A stretch of DNA of 64,000 nucleotides from Candidatus Krumholzibacteriota bacterium. Its GTDB lineage: Bacteria; Krumholzibacteriota; Krumholzibacteriia; JAJRXK01. Position numbers and translations under genes: made by a program. The stretch lies in NCBI GenBank assembly GCA_963764625.1, contig CAVXTH010000001.1, positions 128,001 to 192,000 of the forward strand. Direction: 5' to 3'. Positions 8,241 to 20,582 of this stretch are shown piece by piece. Position 1 is the stretch's first letter; each line of letters opens with the position of its first letter. The notes below the pieces were generated by a model. That model searched no databases. It was given only the letters and a program-made list of their open reading frames with translations, and had not been told where the DNA came from.

Positions 8241-9513
8241 ATGAAAGTCCCATCCATCCCGCCCAAGGCCGGCTCGGTTCTCCTTTTACTGGGCCTGATG
8301 CTCGCCGGCGGGGGCGTGTCCTCCGCCCAGAATCCATTTTTGAAAGAGCAGGCGCCCCGGATCATCAAGAAGATCCACATCACGGGCAACGCACACACCA
8401 AGGAATACGTGATCCGGCGCGAGCTCGGCTTTCAGGAAGGCGACGCCTACGACGACGACGCCCTGAATGACGCGTGGTTCCGGCTGGAGCAACTCAACTT
8501 CATCGCCTACGTCGACATCCAGATCGAGAGAGAGGCTCCCGGCGAGATCACCTTGAACATCCAGGTCGAGGAGGACAACCGCTACGATTGGCGTCCCTAC
8601 GTGCACTGGGAACGACGCTTCGACTGGATCTACGGGCTCTCGGGACAGCTGATCAACTTCCGTGGGCGAGGGGAAACTCTGTGGGCGCGGGCCTACGCGG
8701 GGCACAAGCACCACGTGTCAGCGGGCTGGCAGAATCCGTGGATTTTCGGCCGCACCCACCTGGGGGTGGGGGTGAGCGGCTACTACGAGCGCTATCGCTT
8801 CGTGTACGAACCCTTCCGCTTCCGGGACACCGGCGCATCGCTCGACCTCTGGCGCGACGTGTCCAAGAATCTCCGAGTGATGGCCGGCTATACCTACCGG
8901 GACACCAAGATCAGCGAGTTCGATTCGACAGGAGCCGAACTCGGCGCCGCCGACCCCTATCTTCGGGGCGGCGTGGAATACGACAGCCGCGATCTGCGCT
9001 ACTTTCCCAGCCATGGCGTGCACGCCAAGGCAATTGACTACCGTCGGGGGCCTCTCCGGCGAGGTCTCGAGCTATTCCTACGTGGATCTCCTCTTGGCCG
9101 GATATCAGGCGGTACCGTACCTGGGCGTGTTGGCGTCGCGGGTGAGCTATCGGGGCACCGACGACTCCCTCCCGGTGTACGAGCGCAGTTACCTGGGTGG
9201 TCCCGAAGACATCCGCGGGGTCGAGTTCTCCAGCGTACGGGGCGACGAGAACTTCCTGGCCACGATCGAGATCAGGCATCCCGTCTTCCTGGTGCCGCTG
9301 CGCGACGGCCGGGCCGTGGGGCTGGGCTTCCACGCCTTCGTCGATTGGGGCACCGCCTGGGAGGCGGCCCAGAGCATCAAGGACGCGGACATGCGCCACT
9401 CGGGAGGAATCGGCCTCCATATCAATTTGAATACCTACAATCTACGCTTCGAGTGGGCGTTCAGTGATCACGACGGCAACAGCTTCATTTTCGCCGACCA
9501 ATTTACCTTTTGA
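8241..9513 (+). CDS. Second Omp85 (BamA/TamA-like) protein with one POTRA domain (frameshift ~9033)
   Basis: Signal peptide, IHITGNAHTKEYVIRRELGF (POTRA), NFRGRG, YDSRD..YFP.HG; second frame YLGGPEDIRG, AFVDWGTAW, GIGLH, terminal F. Confidence 0.88.
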
Positions 9514-9552
9514 TCCAGACTTCCTTCCCCTCGGCCGAAAGGAGGTGCGGGC

Positions 9553-10608
9553 ATGAGCGAGGCAGAGCGCATCCGTCTCACCCGATACGCCGGCGCCGCC
9601 GGTTGAGCCGCCAAGATGAGCCCGGAGGATCTGGGCAAGATTCTGGAAGGCATGGTCGAACCCAATCGCAATCCGCAGGCCCTGGTGGGCTTCGAATCCG
9701 CGGACGACGCCGGGGTCTATCGTCTGGACGATGAACGAGCGCTGGTGTTCACCGTAGATGTGATCACGCCTATCGTGGACGATCCACGCGACTTCGGCCG
9801 CATCGCGGCCGCGAACTCCATCAGCGACGTCTATGCCATGGGCGGTAAGCCCCTCATGGCGCTGAACGTCTCGGGCTTCGCGCCCGAGTTGCCCGCGCAG
9901 ATCTACCGGGAGATTCTCACCGGAGCGCAAGAGATCGCTCGAGAAGCCGGCGTTGTGATCCTGGGTGGCCATACCATCAAGGATAAGGAGATCAAGTACG
10001 GCCTGGCCGTGGTCGGAGAAGTGCACCCCAAGAGAATTCTGCGCAATACCGGCGCCAGGGAGGGTGACGCCCTGGTTCTCACCAAGGCGCTGGGAACTTC
10101 GGCTTTGGCAACCGCGTTCAAGAGCGGAGTCTTCGACGAGTCCGATGCGCGCTATCGGGCTATGGTCGACTCCATGACGCGCCTCAATCGCGAGGCGGGG
10201 GAAATGGCGGCGAGCCACCGCGTTCACGCGCTCACCGACATCACCGGTTTCGGCTTGAGTGGTCATCTGTTGGAAATGCTCGAGGGAAGCGGACTCACCT
10301 TCACGATTCGTCTGGGATCACTCCCCCTTTTGGAGGGCGCGCTCGAAATGTTGGCGGCGGGACACACCTGCGGGGGCGGACAGGCCAATCGCAAACGGGC
10401 GCAAGGGAAGATCGAGCTTCCCGCAAGCATCGAACTTCACCAGGAGTATCTCCTGCACGATCCGCAGACCTCGGGCGGCCTGCTCATGGCGACCACCCCG
10501 GCCGAGGCAGAGAAGATCGTCTCGAACTTGAAAGTCCACGGGCACGCGGCCGCGATCATTGGCGAGGTGACGGCAGCGAGCGAGTTTCCCCTCCGGGTGA
10601 CGGTCTGA
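9553..10608 (+). CDS. selD: Selenide, water dikinase (selenophosphate synthetase), selenocysteine-containing form
   Basis: ATG 9553 after AGGAGG gives MSEAERIRLTRYAGAAG-UGA(9604..9606)-AAKMSP, i.e. the G-C/U-x-x-K motif. In frame with DDAGVY, TVDVITPIVDDP.DFG.IAAANSISDVYAMGG, GGHT, TDITGFGL.GH, DPQTSGGLL. Confidence 0.95.
9620..9636 (+). promoter_or_regulatory. Candidate bacterial SECIS hairpin
   Basis: GCCCGGA-GGA-TCTGGGC: 7-bp stem (one G-U) with a G-containing apical loop, starting 13 nt after the UGA. Confidence 0.65.
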
Positions 10609-10926
10609 GCTACTGGTGGCGCATATCGGTTCGAACATTGAACAACTCTCTCCATTCTTGCAAGCGAACGACGTGTCCGGCTTGCGCGACTCGAAGAGGA
10701 CGCTTATCTCTTCGGAAGGCTCCCAAGCATCGCCGCGTCGCACGAAAAGCTGGCACGGAGATGATACTGCTCTGAATTGATAGGAGTTCCTCTCCGACAA
10801 ATTTGATCCTTGGGACGTCGTAGTACTTCGGCTCTCACACGGAACCAAGCTCGTCTCTCCGTGCTCCCATCAAACTGCGGACGAGCCTCCGACAATGAAT
10901 GACTACCGTCATGGATTGGAGTAGCA

Positions 10927-11892
10927 ATGGTCGAACGAATCGCTGTCTACGTCGACGGCGCCAATGCCTACTTTGCCCAGAAAGAGGCGCTGAATTGGTG
11001 GATTGACTGGCCATCCTTCCTGGATTGGGTGAAGCGGGACCGAGAACTGGTGAGCGCTCGCTGGTACCAATCCTATCGGCGCCCTCCCGAACCGGAGCAG
11101 GAGCGATTTCTGCATCATCTCACGATCGTGGGCTATGCGGTGCGCAAGAAAGTCCTCAAGTCGATCTATGATCGCGAGACCGGTCAGAATTCGGTGAAGG
11201 GCAATCTGAACATCGAGCTGGTGATCGATGCCCTGACCGACGCGCAGCACTACGACACCATTCTCTTGGTCACCGGGGACAGCGATTTCGTCCCGCTGGT
11301 GGAAGCCCTGCGTTCGCGGGGCAAACGGGTTCTGGTGGCCGCCACCCCACAAAACGTCGCGGTGGACCTCCGGCAGGTCATTGGCGTCAACTACATCGAC
11401 TTGAGCGATTTGAGATCGGAAATCGAGAGCGACAAGCGGCCTCCCGAGAGAATCGAGCGCTTCGAGCGGGTGGATCAATCCGAGCGTGTTTCGAAGTGGG
11501 ATCGTGGATTCGATTCCGATCGAGAATTCGTCGAGGAGGCCTCCGAGCCCAACGGAAACGTGCGGCTTCCCTCCGAGCAGGACTATAAGGTCACGTCTAT
11601 TCTCGACCCGCATCCTCCCAGCGTTCCCAACCAGGACATCGTCTTACCGCAGGAAGGGGAGATCGTTCGCTGCACCGTGCAATCGGTCAAGAAGTACGGC
11701 ATTTTCCTCGACCTACACGAGAACGTGAAGACGCTACTCCACGTCAAGGACATGAACCGGGGCTACGTGGCGGACGCGGGCGAGTTCTATCGAGTGGGTC
11801 AGGAGGTTCCGGTCCAGGTGGTCGGAATCGACTGGGAGCGCCAACCACCCGAGGTTCGCGTTCAGGTCGTGACTCCGGAGATGGAATACTAG
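10927..11892 (+). CDS. NYN (LabA/DUF88) PIN-like domain fused to a C-terminal S1 RNA-binding domain
   Basis: N-terminus VYVDGAN...KGNLNIEL..D...LVTGDSDFVPLVE.LR.RGK.V. Charged/Pro-rich linker. C-terminus EGEIVRCTVQSVKKYGIFLDL....KTLLHVKDM...YV......YRVGQEV.VQVVGID (S1). Confidence 0.88.
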   Translation: MVERIAVYVDGANAYFAQKEALNWWIDWPSFLDWVKRDRELVSARWYQSYRRPPEPEQERFLHHLTIVGYAVRKKVLKSIYDRETGQNSVKGNLNIELVIDALTDAQHYDTILLVTGDSDFVPLVEALRSRGKRVLVAATPQNVAVDLRQVIGVNYIDLSDLRSEIESDKRPPERIERFERVDQSERVSKWDRGFDSDREFVEEASEPNGNVRLPSEQDYKVTSILDPHPPSVPNQDIVLPQEGEIVRCTVQSVKKYGIFLDLHENVKTLLHVKDMNRGYVADAGEFYRVGQEVPVQVVGIDWERQPPEVRVQVVTPEMEY

Positions 11893-12782
11893 TTCGGTCT
11901 GGGCGCGAAACGATAACCGACGATTTTGAACGCGAGCTTGGCGGCGGTTTGTTCGTTCACCTGCGTCGAGGGCTGAGGCACCGCTTCGCAGATGTCGGCT
12001 CCGATGAGTTTTCCCTCGCCTTCGGCCACGAGCGCGCGCAGAACGCGCACGACCTGAACCCAGTTCAGACCGCCGGGCTGGGGAGTGCCGGTTCCCGGGC
12101 ACAGGGAGCAGTCGAGCCCATCCACGTCGATGGTGAGATGAATCGGCCCGCCCAGGGCACGCAAGCGCGCCAGGAGATCGCCGAAGGAATCTCCGTCCAC
12201 GAGTTGATGGTCGTAGAAGGTTTCGATACGAGGATTTTCTCGGGCCAGTTCGTATTCACTCTTCTCGGCGCTGCGAATCCCGATCGCCACCAGCTTCTTC
12301 ACCCCGAGATCGAGCACGCGGCGCATCGCACAGGCGTGACTGAACCGACTTCCCAGATACTCTTCCCTCAGGTCGGCATGCGCGTCGATCTGCACCACCG
12401 TGACCTCTGAGGGTTCCTTGAGAATCCCCTTGAGCAACGCGGCGGTGACCGAATGCTCCCCTCCCAGACCCAGGTAGAAGGGAGGCGCCAGGCCATAGCC
12501 CGCGCAGACTCGGGTGACCCGATTCAAGTAGGCCTCCACCCGCTCGTTCTCGTCGGCCACGATCGACGGTAGTACGCAGTAACGTACGACATCCTCGTGA
12601 TCGAAGTTCAACTCTTCGTCGAAGGTCTCCAGGTGCAGGCTCGCGCGCAAAATGGCGTCGGGGGCCAGGGAAGTCCCGGCGCCGTAGCTGACGGTGCCTT
12701 CGAACGGCACGCGAATCACCGCGACCTCGGCCTCGTCCAGGGTGGAATTGGGAAGATCGAGAAAGGTGAGAGCAGTTTCCAT
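11889..12782 (-). CDS. speB: Agmatinase (ureohydrolase family)
   Basis: PFEGTVSYGAGT..AP, GGEHS, DAHADLR, SHAC, GIRS, TIDVDGLD...PGTGTP.PGGL.W. Confidence 0.88.
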   Translation of the reverse strand: METALTFLDLPNSTLDEAEVAVIRVPFEGTVSYGAGTSLAPDAILRASLHLETFDEELNFDHEDVVRYCVLPSIVADENERVEAYLNRVTRVCAGYGLAPPFYLGLGGEHSVTAALLKGILKEPSEVTVVQIDAHADLREEYLGSRFSHACAMRRVLDLGVKKLVAIGIRSAEKSEYELARENPRIETFYDHQLVDGDSFGDLLARLRALGGPIHLTIDVDGLDCSLCPGTGTPQPGGLNWVQVVRVLRALVAEGEGKLIGADICEAVPQPSTQVNEQTAAKLAFKIVGYRFAPRPN

Positions 12783-15505: not shown

Positions 15506-16501
15506 ATGAAGATTTCGTCCTCGGTTCGGTTCTCATTCCTTCTGGTCCTCATCGCATTGTGCTTGCCTCCCGCCGCGGCTTGGGCCCAGTGGGACGGACA
15601 AGGCTGGGCGGACTACACCCAGTTCATCGGACCCATCGATTCGACGATGAAGCAGCATCTCCGGACGATCCTGGCCGCGGGTCAGCAACAGGGACGCACC
15701 CCGGGGCGGATGGGGCAGATCGGAGATTCCATCACCAATTCCGACGCCTATTTCCGAAACGCCACGCTATGGGATATTACCAACAACGAGACCGGGCACG
15801 ACTATGCTCCGATCCGTTCGTGGCTGTCGTACGAGGGTACCAAGCCCGCCGACGGGAATTCCTTCTACCGAGACCACGGAAAGGGAACACCCTACGCAAA
15901 CGAGAGCGGATGGACGATCGCCATCGCGATTCAGGCCGGACACCCCGACGCTTCGGTCCTGGTCGGAGACGGCAGCACGCCCGGGAACTTCTCCTGGGTG
16001 CTCATCATGTTCGGCACCAATGACATCAACTCCGGCAGTTGGAACGCCAACGCCTGGAAATCCACCTACCACGATTTCATCCAGAGTTACATCGATCTGG
16101 GAGTCATTCCCGTAGTGAGCACGATTCCCCCCTCGGCTCCCCACGTCAGCGACGGACGCGTCGAGCTCGCGAACCAGAAGGTCCTCGAACTCGCGAGCGA
16201 GATGCAAATTCCCTACGTCGATTTCTACGCCCTGGTCCTCCACTACCAACCCGACTCATGGGCGAACACCCTGATCTCCTCGGATGGCATCCACCCGTCG
16301 GCGGGCGGGGGCGGAATCGATTTCTCCCAGGATGGCCTGACCTCGAGCGATGGCTACGCCGCGCGCTCGAAACTGAGCTTCGATGTGGCCGAGAAACTCC
16401 AGCGCATCGTGTTCGACGATGGGGCGCCCGACGGTCAAACCGCCGCGCCAGGCCAGAGCATGGGTTCTTTCAAGGCAGGCTTCTCGTCCGGCGGTCACTG
16501 A
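15506..16501 (+). CDS. Secreted SGNH/GDSL hydrolase
   Basis: Signal peptide ending AAAWA; block I GDSIT, block III MFGTND, block V DGIHP. Confidence 0.88.
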   Translation: MKISSSVRFSFLLVLIALCLPPAAAWAQWDGQGWADYTQFIGPIDSTMKQHLRTILAAGQQQGRTPGRMGQIGDSITNSDAYFRNATLWDITNNETGHDYAPIRSWLSYEGTKPADGNSFYRDHGKGTPYANESGWTIAIAIQAGHPDASVLVGDGSTPGNFSWVLIMFGTNDINSGSWNANAWKSTYHDFIQSYIDLGVIPVVSTIPPSAPHVSDGRVELANQKVLELASEMQIPYVDFYALVLHYQPDSWANTLISSDGIHPSAGGGGIDFSQDGLTSSDGYAARSKLSFDVAEKLQRIVFDDGAPDGQTAAPGQSMGSFKAGFSSGGH

Positions 16502-19386
16502 CCGCTGTCAGCCCTTGGCACCGGCCGCGAGGAAAACGCCAAGGAGACCAGCTCCGGCGGGGCTTTTAGCTCTTGCGCGGCCCACTCGTAACGCGACCGC
16601 TGACATGCCAGAAGCAAGACCTGTTGGTTACTTGCGGCGATATGCAGGAGCATCTTCATTCCGGCGATCAAGCGCTCGTCGTCGGCATGGGCGAAGGGGT
16701 CATCCAGGATCAGAGGCAGAAATCCCTCGCTTCCGCTCAGCAGATGGCTTACCGCCATGCGCGCCGCGAGGTAGACACCGTCCCGCGCGCCGGCGCTGAG
16801 CTGTTGGTCGACTTCGACGCTCGTGAGCAGCTTGTGCTCGTGCATCACCTCGAATTCGAGATTCTCGTTGAAGCGAATGTCGCGACTGCCGGTTCCCAAC
16901 TGCTTCAATAATTCTCCCGCTTCGTGATTGAGCTGCGCCGCCCAGGTCACATAGGTCTCGCGGGAGATTTTGGCGAGAGTGTCGTGGGCCAGAGTCACCG
17001 CAGCCTTGAACTCGCGTGCGCGGCGGAGGGCGCTGCGCATTTCGTCGAGTCGCTCGTAGAGCGGGCCCACTTTCTGTTCATGGAGATTCAGGAAGGACCG
17101 GACCGCGGTGAAACCGTCCTCGCGTGCGCGGGCTTCGCTTTGCTCCTTCTGCGCGAGTTCGCGTTCGAGCTCTTCCAAGCTCTCGCGTAGGGTTGGCGAC
17201 GATTGTTCGGCGGGAAGCGGAAGTTTCTCCAGCCCTTCCCTTGCCCGCGCTAGGCTCACGGCCTTCGCCTGCTGGAGGCGCCGCTCCAGGGATTCGAGAG
17301 ACTCTTCGCTCGGAGTTTCCTCTTTGAGTCTGGGGAGCTTCAGATCGCGACGGAGTCGCGCCTCTTCGGCCGCTTTCGCCTGCTCTCGTAGCTTGCGCAA
17401 ACTCTCGCGCGTGTCGTCGCCTTCCGCGAATTGAACTCCGCAGCGCGCGAGAGCTTCCTTCGCCTGACTCTCACGCTGCTCGAGAGCGGTGGTCTTTTCC
17501 TCGACCTGGTCGCGCCAGCTCTTCGCATTCTCCGCCGCGGCCGCCGCCACCGAGTAGATCTTCACCGCTTCCCGCAGCTTTGGAAGGTTCTCTTCGAGCT
17601 CCTGGACTCTCGGCTCACCCCCGAAGACTTCCCACGCCTCGTGAACGCCTCTCAGGGTGTCCTCGGTCTGTTTCTCGGATTCCAGCAGCCTCTCGTCGAC
17701 GCCAGCGAGCGTATCCAGGTTACGCTCGACCAGCCGAAGCGACTGGTAGCGTCCGTGCAGTTCGTCGGCGGGGATTCCGAGTCGGTAGGCGAGGTCCTGC
17801 CACGCCAGCACGTGCTCTTGGTTCTTTTCCTCGATCTCGTGCAGTTTCCTGCTTTGCTCGTCCACCCGCTCGCTCGCCACTCTCTCCTCACCACGGCGGA
17901 GCCTGGAAGTGGTAGTGAGGAAGAACAGACCCAGAACGATGACCGCTCCCCCGCCGTAGGGTAAAGCCTGGGAGAGCAGGGCCCAATGCGCCGGAAGGAG
18001 CAAACCGGTGGCGAGAATCGCCGCGCCGACCGCGGCCGTCACCCCGCCCAAGCGGCTTCTGCGGGTTCGGGCTGCGAAGACCTCGTCGAGTTGCCGCTGC
18101 CACATCGACAGATCCCGGCGGGTGCTCTCCCTCAATTCGTCGATCTCGAAATCCCGGCGGGTGTGGGTCACGAGCAACTCGCGATCCTCGGGCGTGAGGT
18201 ACTGCAACGCCTCGAGCATGGTACCGGCCTGGTCGGGATCGAAACCCCGCTCGCGCATCGCCTCGCGTTCACGCCTGGCGGCCTCGTGCAGACGTTTCTC
18301 GTCGCCTTGGATGTCCTTCAAGCGAGCGATGGCGTGCGCCACGATCTCGATGTCTTCGGTCTGCGGGGCCCGCTTCAGGCCCAGCTTGTCGCGAGCGGCG
18401 AGCCTCTCAGCGCTCTCCGCTTCCGCTTCCTGCGCATCCTTGGCATAGGATTCGACGGTGCGGCGCGCTCCTTCCCAACGATTGCAGAGAACTTCCGCCT
18501 CTTGAAAGCCATCAGAGCTCAGCTCGGCCAGATCCGATTCTTCGCGTACCTGGGCTTCCAACTTCGCCAAGGCCTCGCGCTGCGCGCGCGCCTTGCGCAG
18601 CTCCTCTTCGAGTTCACGCAGCCTCAGACGGGCGCGCGCCCAGTCGATCGCCTCACGGCGCGTATCGCGCTCGCGTTTGCGTGATTCGCTCTGCTTCAGC
18701 TCCTCGATTCGACCGCTCATCGCGCCGCGCTGCTCGGTGAACCCGGCAAGCTCCTGCTCGATTCCTTCGATTTCCGCCTCGCAACGCGAGATCTCGGTAT
18801 CGACCTTTCCCTTGCCGGCCAGAGTCGCTCCCTCGTATTCGTCCAGACCCTTCTGAAGCGCGCGCAACGCGGCGGCCGCGGTCGATTCCAGGGACTCCGA
18901 GTCGGCCATGCGCTGGATGGCCTCGCTCAATCCCGAGGCGTCGCCCCATTCCACCTGTCCCTGCCGGACGAAGGCGCTGTGCAGAAAATGTTCGCGCGAG
19001 ATGCCGAGCAGACGCTCGCCCACTTCAAGTTGTTTTCCGCTGCGGAACTCGTCGCTGACGTTCCGTCCCGCCTCGAGTACCCGCGCCGAGTCGTCCCGGA
19101 AATCGCGCTCGATCGTGAGCTCACGAGAGCCGTGACGCAGGCGCAGGATCAGTCCGTAGGGTCCGCCGTCCCAGGGTCGGTAGACCTCCCACTCGCTCAA
19201 TTTCGATCGGGCCCGCCGTTTGTCCTTGTCCAGACCGTAGAGGGCGGCCAGGATCGACTCCATCAGGGTGGTCTTTCCCGCCTCGTTCTTCTCGAGCAGA
19301 AGGCCGAGCTTACCCTGACCGGCATCGAGGGAGTATTTCCCGCGGAGTTGGCCGAAACCCTTGATGCTCAGCTGCAAAATGCGCAT
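16495..19386 (-). CDS. YhaN/SbcC-like SMC-family ATPase with a mid-protein transmembrane hairpin
   Basis: Start MRILQLSIKGFG at 19386 (TAATG overlap with the upstream gene). Walker A NEAGKTT, Q-loop FVRQG, long coiled coils, signature LSAGARD, Walker B/D-loop LILDDPFAHAD. Confidence 0.88.
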   Translation of the reverse strand: MRILQLSIKGFGQLRGKYSLDAGQGKLGLLLEKNEAGKTTLMESILAALYGLDKDKRRARSKLSEWEVYRPWDGGPYGLILRLRHGSRELTIERDFRDDSARVLEAGRNVSDEFRSGKQLEVGERLLGISREHFLHSAFVRQGQVEWGDASGLSEAIQRMADSESLESTAAAALRALQKGLDEYEGATLAGKGKVDTEISRCEAEIEGIEQELAGFTEQRGAMSGRIEELKQSESRKRERDTRREAIDWARARLRLRELEEELRKARAQREALAKLEAQVREESDLAELSSDGFQEAEVLCNRWEGARRTVESYAKDAQEAEAESAERLAARDKLGLKRAPQTEDIEIVAHAIARLKDIQGDEKRLHEAARREREAMRERGFDPDQAGTMLEALQYLTPEDRELLVTHTRRDFEIDELRESTRRDLSMWQRQLDEVFAARTRRSRLGGVTAAVGAAILATGLLLPAHWALLSQALPYGGGAVIVLGLFFLTTTSRLRRGEERVASERVDEQSRKLHEIEEKNQEHVLAWQDLAYRLGIPADELHGRYQSLRLVERNLDTLAGVDERLLESEKQTEDTLRGVHEAWEVFGGEPRVQELEENLPKLREAVKIYSVAAAAAENAKSWRDQVEEKTTALEQRESQAKEALARCGVQFAEGDDTRESLRKLREQAKAAEEARLRRDLKLPRLKEETPSEESLESLERRLQQAKAVSLARAREGLEKLPLPAEQSSPTLRESLEELERELAQKEQSEARAREDGFTAVRSFLNLHEQKVGPLYERLDEMRSALRRAREFKAAVTLAHDTLAKISRETYVTWAAQLNHEAGELLKQLGTGSRDIRFNENLEFEVMHEHKLLTSVEVDQQLSAGARDGVYLAARMAVSHLLSGSEGFLPLILDDPFAHADDERLIAGMKMLLHIAASNQQVLLLACQRSRYEWAAQELKAPPELVSLAFSSRPVPRADSGQ

Positions 19387-20582
19387 TAGGCCTCGTAGTG
19401 GCTGTCCAAACGCCCTTGGCTGAGAGCATCCAGGCCGTACAGCAGCGCGCGTCGTGCGATCTCGGCTTCTTCGGGATCGCTTTTTTCGAGCCGCTGGCGG
19501 AGCTGGGCCACGAAACGCTCCTCGGTGGTGCGCGCGTCCTTTAGAGGAGGATAGCGGTTCAGGTCGATGTCTGGTACCAGGCCGGAGAAATCGGACGCGA
19601 AGTGGAAGTATCGCGGCGCGATCTGGTCGAGAAAGTGCAGCTCGAGACCCCGCGTACGCCTTCCTTTGAGGCGCAGATAGATCAGATCTTCCTCGCGCGC
19701 CCCGCTTCCACGCAGCGCTTCCTCCACTTTCGCAAACGCCGCGTCCGAATAGGAACACGAGGAGAGGTCGCACTCGATCGCGCGTACTTGCCGCGGGTCG
19801 AGCGGAAGAAACTCGACTTCGCTCCGTCCCTCGAGAAGCCGGACCACGAGCGCCCCCTTGCTTCCCCGTTCGTCCAATCCGGCGGCCAACAGACTTCCAC
19901 TATACGCCCCGAGCACTGCACCATTCTCTGCGCGCAGCTCTTGCCGCTCGTGATAGTGCCCCAGCGCGGTCCAGGAGAATCCTTGCGCCCTCAACTCTTC
20001 TTCGCTGAAAGGATAGGTGGCCTTCTGACTCTGCAGATAGCCCCCGTCGTCGCGGCTGCCGTGAAAGAGCAGAAGCGAAGTGCTCGAGTCGGGGCGATCG
20101 ATGCGGGTGGCCAGCCGGCGGAGCTGGCTGGGCAGATTCGCCGCCACCCCGCAGGCGGTGACCGAAACGTCCGGCCGGTGAGGCCAGGGCACGTTCTGAA
20201 ATTCCTCGTGCGCGAAGATGTGGACGTTTTCGGGCCAGCGGAAATCACGGGTCCCCGGCCCGTCATCCTGGCGGTACGGCGAGACCCCTCCGTAGGAATC
20301 GTGGTTTCCCGGGGCCAAAAATACGGGTTTGGGGGCAATCGAGCCCAGGGTGCCCGCTACGAAGCGCAGGGTGTCGCCCCGGACGAGCTCGTCGTCGAAG
20401 AGATCGCCCGGGAGCAGCACGCCGTCCAGACCGCGCGCTTCGACCTGGGCGATGGCGGCCTGGAACGCCGCGCGCCTCTCTCTCTCGCGTTGGGCGGCCT
20501 TGCGGCGACCCAGGCGAAGCTTGCCCGCGCTTAGAGGGGCGTCGAAGTGGACATCGGAAAGCTGCAGGAAGCTCAGGCTCAC
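19386..20582 (-). CDS. Mre11/SbcD-like (YhaO) metallophosphoesterase DNA repair nuclease
   Basis: SDVHFD, GDLFD, PGNHD, LFHG, ALGHYH motifs. Confidence 0.9.
   Translation of the reverse strand: MSLSFLQLSDVHFDAPLSAGKLRLGRRKAAQRERERRAAFQAAIAQVEARGLDGVLLPGDLFDDELVRGDTLRFVAGTLGSIAPKPVFLAPGNHDSYGGVSPYRQDDGPGTRDFRWPENVHIFAHEEFQNVPWPHRPDVSVTACGVAANLPSQLRRLATRIDRPDSSTSLLLFHGSRDDGGYLQSQKATYPFSEEELRAQGFSWTALGHYHERQELRAENGAVLGAYSGSLLAAGLDERGSKGALVVRLLEGRSEVEFLPLDPRQVRAIECDLSSCSYSDAAFAKVEEALRGSGAREEDLIYLRLKGRRTRGLELHFLDQIAPRYFHFASDFSGLVPDIDLNRYPPLKDARTTEERFVAQLRQRLEKSDPEEAEIARRALLYGLDALSQGRLDSHYEA

Follow-up and report, generated by a model that had tools for sequence, protein, structure and literature searches.

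What does a protein do in which a LabA-type NYN nuclease domain is tied to an S1 domain, and what follows if one of its catalytic aspartates reads as asparagine? The question is raised by a gene at positions 10927-11892 on the plus strand of the window, by which we mean the whole stretch of 64,000 nucleotides analysed here, taken from an uncultured salt-marsh bacterium of the Candidatus Krumholzibacteriota. Bacterial LabA-type NYN proteins are abundant and almost none of them has a known substrate, and the NYN-S1 family offers a clean case with S1 as the RNA-binding partner. We find that the protein is best explained as a predicted accessory endoribonuclease of the housekeeping type, rare but unsurprising. 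We put it at slightly better than even odds (about 0.55) that it works as an S1-guided, metal-dependent endonuclease for single-stranded RNA (ssRNA), possibly slowed by the Asn.

The gene is a single open reading frame of 321 codons and a stop, and its ATG has GGAG upstream. The earlier note had read it as a LabA-type NYN domain joined through a charged linker of ~70 residues to an S1 domain, and profile searches bear this out in every part. The NYN domain, a PIN-like nuclease domain, comprises residues 4-151 (10936-11379, plus strand) and matches Pfam PF01936 at 95.1 bits, above the cut-off of 24.2 (E 7.5e-27), over positions 1-137 of the 145-position profile; PF11977, the Zc3h12a/Regnase-type NYN, is absent from the six Pfam families that the query matched at E up to 1. 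The predicted RNA-binding S1 domain, an OB fold, comprises residues 241-305 (11647-11841, plus strand) and matches PF00575 at 42.7 bits, above the cut-off of 22 (E 7.3e-11). A search of 5.8 billion proteins left 63 of 3452 candidates at E up to 0.001. All 63 members of the resulting alignment (A1) match PF01936, and 57 of the 63, the query counted, contain both domains, at identities of 51-100%; where a source is named, in a few cases, it is Candidatus Krumholzibacteria. The best NCBIfam matches are S1-only families (CvfD/GSP13, bS1), all of them under their cut-offs: the best one, the CvfD/Ygs/GSP13 family NF040579, reaches 50.7 bits against a cut-off of 117, on the S1 domain only, so the protein does not belong to it. 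Homology and fold place the protein in the NYN (PF01936, COG1432/LabA-like) and S1 families.

Between the two domains lies a charged, disordered linker of low pLDDT (residues ~170-237, 11434-11637, plus strand), which in the query has 68 residues, 16 of them acidic and 11 basic, and is mildly acidic with a net charge of -5. Across the relatives the linker measures 43-141 residues with a median net charge of -13, and its acidic composition is kept while its sequence is not. The linkers of four relatives (P0022, P0034, P0043 and P0055 in A1) hold strongly acidic low-complexity runs that contain Tyr, e.g. DDEYDDEY, with net charges down to -35.

Does the predicted fold agree with these assignments? 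An AlphaFold2 model was computed from a 139-row alignment in which 46 rows came from the 57 family members and 93 from the 150 distant representatives listed; S1-only multi-domain matches, fragments and long fusions were excluded. The model has a mean pLDDT of 85.5 and a pTM of 0.61; it is confident over residues 1-170 (pLDDT >90) and 240-315, and drops below a pLDDT of 50 over residues 191-234. The modelled NYN domain superposes on VPA0982 of Vibrio parahaemolyticus (PDB 2qip) with a Z score of 21.9 and an rmsd of 2.1 A over 157/162 residues, and on the NYN domains of MARF1 (6fdl, 5yaa) with a Z score of 16.4. It has the PIN-like alpha/beta fold of 2qip, without the helical insert after strand 2 as far as the secondary-structure string alone tells. 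The S1 region forms five strands between residues 246 and 314, i.e. a five-stranded OB fold, and superposes on the S1 domains of PNPase, GSP13 and bS1 with Z scores of 11-12. All 57 full-length relatives share its residues Y257, G258, F260, H272, K274, D302 and R311. The RNA-binding surface of the PNPase S1 domain, which we take to consist of F19, F22, H34, D64 and R68, finds its probable counterparts in Y257, F260, H272, D302 and R311, an equivalence drawn from HMMER alignments to bS1.

Is the substituted residue at a catalytic position? The first active-site Asp, D10, lies at the end of strand 1 in the motif VDGAN (residues 9-13; D10 codon 10954-10956, plus strand), aligns with VPA0982 D14 and is invariant in 57/57 family members and 93/93 distant NYN proteins. 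The third, D118, belongs to GDSDF (residues 117-121; codons of D118-S119-D120 at 11278-11286, plus strand), aligns with VPA0982 D115 and is likewise invariant in the family (57/57). The second position falls on the last residue of KGNLN (residues 91-95), where the codon AAC (11209-11211, plus strand) specifies N95 at the N-terminus of helix 3. HMMER aligns N95 with the second D of 'KGDWD' in 2qip, which is VPA0982 D92 once a 3-residue tag offset is allowed for, and helix 3 begins at residue 94 in the model, consistent with this mapping. Chi and White (bioRxiv 10.1101/2024.04.08.588522) equate VPA0982 D14/D92/D115 with human MARF1 D358/D426/D452 and call these residues absolutely conserved. Human D426 is mouse D246, which makes D246 the equivalent of position 95 (PMC6217404; bioRxiv 10.1101/2024.04.08.588522), and each of the mouse MARF1 mutations D178A, D215A, D246A and D272A was reported to abolish ssRNA cleavage (Yao et al., PMC6217404). 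From the mapping to VPA0982 D92 and MARF1 D426 and from the start of helix 3, we conclude that N95 stands at a genuine catalytic Asp position. The earlier note was therefore right in its reading of KGNLN with an AAC codon beside intact VDGAN and GDSDF motifs, and right to place the substitution at a catalytic aspartate, one of the three conserved active-site Asp positions of LabA-type NYN domains. Of the three-Asp signature of proven NYN RNases, the query has D10 and D118 with Asn95 in the middle, a position at which 36 of the 57 relatives have Asp. MARF1 D215 likely corresponds to E55 or E57, where strand 2 ends; position 57 is acidic in 57/57 relatives.

Could the Asn codon simply be wrong, introduced when the metagenome-assembled genome was sequenced or assembled? 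Local errors are conceivable, as the neighbouring Omp85 gene of the window appears to be frameshifted, but we give this explanation next to no weight. The codon was checked around position 11209 in Logan contigs of three public salt-marsh DNA runs (X1, X2 and X3), and among the differences listed in these contigs there is none from AAC at 11209-11211. The covering contigs are record 4 of X1 (11069-11237, with 0 other letters), record 13 of X2 (10801-12000) and record 14 of X3 (10605-11364), and contigs of X1-X3 depart from the window at many other places. Moreover, AAC is found in five of five genomes of the window's genus and, across the ten species-representative genomes of its family (f1), in six, the other four having GAC; Asn recurs in 21 of the 57 relatives. 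The Asn95 codon is real.

Is Asn95 then a peculiarity of this gene? The earlier note had singled out the lost Asp as noteworthy, and of this claim the substitution itself stands, while its special status for the gene does not. Position 95 is Asn in 21 and Asp in 36 of the 57 full-length relatives and never any other residue, and relatives at ~70% identity have GAC, i.e. Asp. Among distant NYN representatives, 84 of 93 have Asp at this position, the other nine have S, E, Y, T (two), C, I, A and V, and Asn occurs in 0 of 93. Position 120 also varies in the 57 relatives (D in 46, E in 9, I and A in one each): all nine Glu are found in Asn carriers of one clade, and Ile and Ala both in Asp carriers. 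Apart from this Asp-to-Glu change in one Asn clade, we saw no column of the motif strings, compared by eye, that changes together with D95N.

How often did the residue change? A maximum-likelihood tree (quick search over 314 alignment columns), in which four distant NYN-S1 proteins served as outgroups to the 57 relatives, requires at least three state changes at position 95, two of which are forced by the starred branches alone, and all outgroups and basal lineages have Asp. The best tree that holds all 21 Asn carriers together was rejected by an AU test (delta lnL 165, p 5e-42). Both states are found even within one genus, with Asn in one genome (G021) and Asp in two others (G022 and G023). 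The repeated changes, the AU rejection and the mixed states among genomes together argue that a single G-to-A transition occurred several times and then persisted. In the aligned sequences, Asp and Asn are the two states of a polymorphism that recurs in the family, and Asn is not peculiar to the gene of the window. Orthologues that differ at one catalytic ligand in a shared genomic setting amount to a natural experiment, and a comparison of the Asp and Asn forms could show how fast an NYN nuclease has to be in vivo and in what way changes of a metal ligand tune PIN-like enzymes.

What would the protein do with either residue? We infer that the C-terminal OB fold would bind ssRNA and that the flexible acidic tether would let the RNA held by S1 be presented to the exposed NYN active site. 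There, the presented RNA would be cleaved by a metal-dependent site made up of D10, N95 and D118, with N13, S119 and D120 nearby. Asn95 would keep the shape of the side chain and lose one negative charge. It would thereby weaken or retune metal binding, so that turnover would be slower or the Mg/Mn preference changed, with the function not abolished. Lineages of the family switch between an Asp and an Asn form. Two characterised NYN enzymes provide the background for this proposal. Mouse MARF1 is described as an ssRNA endonuclease that needs Mg2+ or Mn2+, four Asp and its RNA-binding LOTUS domains (PMC6217404), and the NYN of Bacteroides fragilis as a Mn2+-dependent ssRNA nuclease whose active site was superposed on VPA0982 D14/D92/D115 (bioRxiv 10.1101/2024.04.08.588522).

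Does the Asn leave the nuclease intact, or does it mark the loss of catalysis? In the Asn lineages the NYN domain might be catalytically inert, which would make the protein an RNA-binding regulator or chaperone built of S1 and NYN, a pseudo-nuclease, with the Asp relatives remaining nucleases. We regard this as possible, though clearly the less probable outcome. Asp-to-Asn changes serve as catalytically dead mutations in other PIN-like nucleases, and N95 occupies the position whose Ala mutant is dead in MARF1; by this analogy, a strong rate loss from Asn would be plausible, which weakens our preferred explanation. The acidic cluster is not absolutely constrained either, as position 120 is Ile or Ala in two Asp carriers and Glu in nine Asn carriers, and within the Asn carriers S1 is more conserved than NYN (divergence 0.198 vs 0.269). 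Inactive members are known in PIN-like families, and PMC5499597 lists NYN.COG1432 with 1-5 conserved residues and a '+/-'. Yet all 21 Asn carriers keep the other active-site residues unchanged: D10, N13, D101 and D118 are the same in all 57 relatives, the Asn carriers included. Position 95 is only ever D or the isosteric N (57/57). Nor does the NYN domain diverge faster in Asn carriers, with 0.269 in Asn-Asn pairs vs 0.267 in Asp-Asp pairs (the pairs being non-independent). Finally, Asp and Asn alternate among close relatives in the same gene neighbourhood, which is hard to square with a changed job. The retained active site and the unaccelerated NYN domain argue against a simple loss of function, whatever the rate, although the residues that are kept might bind RNA or metal in a protein that does not cut. 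We favour a working, possibly slowed ssRNA endonuclease because only the isosteric Asn replaces Asp, the other site residues are invariant and the constraint on NYN is not relaxed.

A bolder idea goes one step further and treats position 95 as a rheostat. Orthologues in sister lineages would change time and again between two forms: an 'Asp' nuclease that cuts fast, and an 'Asn' form that is slow or depends on metals in a different way. The 'Asn' form would chiefly bind or process RNA at specific sites, which might lie on the ribosome or in the conserved 5' leader of its own gene. The ribosome comes to mind as a target because the S1 domain is GSP13-like. We consider this scenario rather unlikely and offer it as speculation.

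Is the combination of NYN and S1 common? The earlier note had called it uncommon, and our searches agree. Among 208 genomes of the phylum, 91 contain a match at E up to 1e-10, and the full-length protein with both domains is confined to the Krumholzibacteriota family f1, where ten of ten genomes have it (nine of nine and the window's own). In an HMM check of 115 loci, NYN and S1 occur in one reading frame in f1 loci only (19 reading frames). Family f7 (80 of 91 genomes) has an NYN-only homologue of 200-280 residues at 30-35% identity, with Asp at position 95 in 19 of 20 loci, the remaining locus being unmatched by the search pattern. These homologues are not split forms of the same protein: a selD or arginase-family gene lies within 1.5 kb in 0 of 20 loci, and no S1 is found in the same reading frame. 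An exhaustive search of 1.84 billion representatives gave one 50%-identity cluster for the query's protein family and a handful of distant clusters (identity 33-41%) with NYN and one or two S1-like domains, all with KGNLD. This distant sister group is sparse, and the one source name available for it is that of a Planctomycetota MAG. Five of its metagenomic members (P0064, P0065, P0068, P0069 and P0071; ~385-407 residues) have NYN followed by two S1-like domains with the motif 'VK.YG.FL.NPW..K.LLH', and three shorter ones (P0066, P0070 and P0073) have one such domain; Asp occupies position 95 in the whole sister group.

Matches in a protein atlas scored 0.86 or lower and led to generic NYN clusters only. 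A full-text literature search found no description of a LabA-type NYN + S1 protein and no experimental result for any member of the family, and in the search listing for the S1-domain survey PMC11641769 the term 'NYN' occurs 0 times. An entry for the NYN + S1 architecture likely exists in a catalogue already. The architecture is rare.

Which genes surround this one, and do they hint at its role? The NYN gene is single-copy (n=1) in the window's genome, which is 96% complete. The order orf5065, orf6847, orf7643, Omp85, selD, NYN-S1, arginase family, PGM is kept in eight of eight related loci, with insertions downstream in some of them. A functional link to selD was considered and set aside: the two genes are adjacent in all eight loci, but the whole block of ~10 genes is equally kept, and we therefore read the adjacency as inherited order. 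A role as replacement for a missing major RNase was dropped as well, since the genome has its own RNase E/G; RNase Y was not detected in the same 96% complete genome.

Several of the neighbours deserve a remark of their own. In the selD gene (9553-10608, plus strand), the catalytic position is occupied by a TGA in frame (…AGAAGU-AAK…), best read as selenocysteine; on this reading the gene starts ~21 codons before the ATG at 9616, the start picked by an ORF caller. The Omp85/POTRA outer-membrane gene (8241-9513, plus strand) is split into two frames (8241-9467 and 9013-9513) with a break near 9025-9060, and in four relatives (L001-L004) it is one open frame of 428-452 residues; a DNA alignment to L002 places a net 2-base length difference at the break, which is either an assembly error or a real frameshift. 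A few genes downstream, on the minus strand (16495-19773), a reading frame of 1091 residues gives weak matches to AAA_23/AAA_27 (SbcC/Rad50-like ATPase).

The setting also bears on whether the protein might be an anti-phage defence or toxin-type NYN nuclease. Its NYN part matches the PADLOC models PDLC01154 'LabA-like NYN' (E 6e-18) and HEC-09 (E 1.6e-13), and a CRISPR-associated NYN exists (bioRxiv 10.1101/2024.04.08.588522). What the PADLOC match covers, however, is only the generic portion of the NYN domain, at positions 149-303 of a 310-position profile. The gene has one copy and is present in ten of ten family genomes, and it sits in the conserved housekeeping synteny Omp85-selD-gene-arginase family-PGM, where we saw no partner gene and no island features. 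A defence or toxin role is thus highly improbable.

Upstream of the gene, blocks of the region 10680-10926 (plus strand) are kept in five genus-level sequences, from which we infer a candidate promoter and a putative leader of ~215 nt. The promoter-like arrangement TTGCGC-17 nt-TATCTC (10682-10710, plus strand) falls into blocks conserved at the genus level, and the promoter-like blocks GCTTGCGC and TTATCTCT, 17 nt apart, are both also present in L006. A scan of 10400-12100 for consensus promoters and terminators gave 0 of each, and an Rfam scan of 9300-12300 gave 0 matches at E up to 1. The region contains the complementary blocks GGCTCCC…CGAGCCT and GGAGT…GCTCC, and a small hairpin, ATGAC-N4-GTCAT, directly precedes the ribosome-binding site. 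A structured leader RNA found no support: RNAalifold gave -24.0 kcal/mol for the five genus-level sequences with an unfavourable covariation term of +3.78. Evidence for transcription was sought in an RNA run (X17), whose contigs span only 11057-11207 and 11281-11431, which is too little, and DNA carry-over is possible.

Is RNA the substrate at all? FEN-type nucleases, which act on DNA, also have a PIN-like fold, and S1/OB folds are capable of binding single-stranded DNA (ssDNA), so that the protein might act on ssDNA or might have a non-nucleolytic role such as binding of the ribosome or of a small molecule. A fusion of a LabA homologue has also been linked to nicotine degradation (PMC5499597). 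Against this, the nearest characterised NYN domains, those of MARF1 and of B. fragilis, cut ssRNA, and the best matches of the S1 domain are the RNA-binding proteins bS1, GSP13 and PNPase. We hold these other roles to be very unlikely and retain ssRNA as the predicted substrate. The impact of such an enzyme will be limited, since the organism is uncultured and the design of a nuclease with an RNA-binding module is already well known.

How does the protein compare with known systems? The closest solved structure is VPA0982, a LabA-like NYN of the COG1432 group, with which the query shares the motif positions (E 2.5e-15, ~30% identity). VPA0982 is a stand-alone domain of 165 residues whose function is not known and has Asp at D14, D92 and D115, whereas the query has Asn at the second position and adds a linker and S1. 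Mouse and human MARF1 (NYN + RRM + LOTUS) share the NYN fold, and their Asp residues map to D10, position 95 and D118. The predicted logic of the query would also be that of MARF1, in which nuclease activity depends on a fused RNA-binding module. At ~14% identity, MARF1 is nevertheless eukaryotic, far larger and equipped with LOTUS/RRM instead of S1, and it requires the helix-3 Asp for activity where the query has Asn. The CRISPR-associated NYN of B. fragilis (Chi and White, bioRxiv 10.1101/2024.04.08.588522) is closer in being bacterial, with a 2qip-like fold and sequence-nonspecific ssRNA nuclease activity; it differs in having no S1, in belonging to a type III CRISPR locus and in having all three Asp. 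Fusions of LabA-type NYN with OST-HTH, described in PMC5499597, follow the same principle of a PIN-like nuclease joined to an ssRNA-binding module, with another partner domain. The same holds for NYN with a cold-shock domain (CSD), the CSD being present in 14% of one ESM Atlas cluster. In RNase E/G, PNPase, RNase II/R and Rrp44/Dis3, an S1 domain and a catalytic domain share one polypeptide, with S1 holding the ssRNA on which the catalytic domain acts, and Dis3 also carries a PIN endonuclease domain; the catalytic domains and architectures of these enzymes are unrelated to the NYN-S1 protein. The fusion of NYN to RNA-binding modules is thus already known, and the protein of this gene is a variant that pairs a LabA-type NYN domain with S1.
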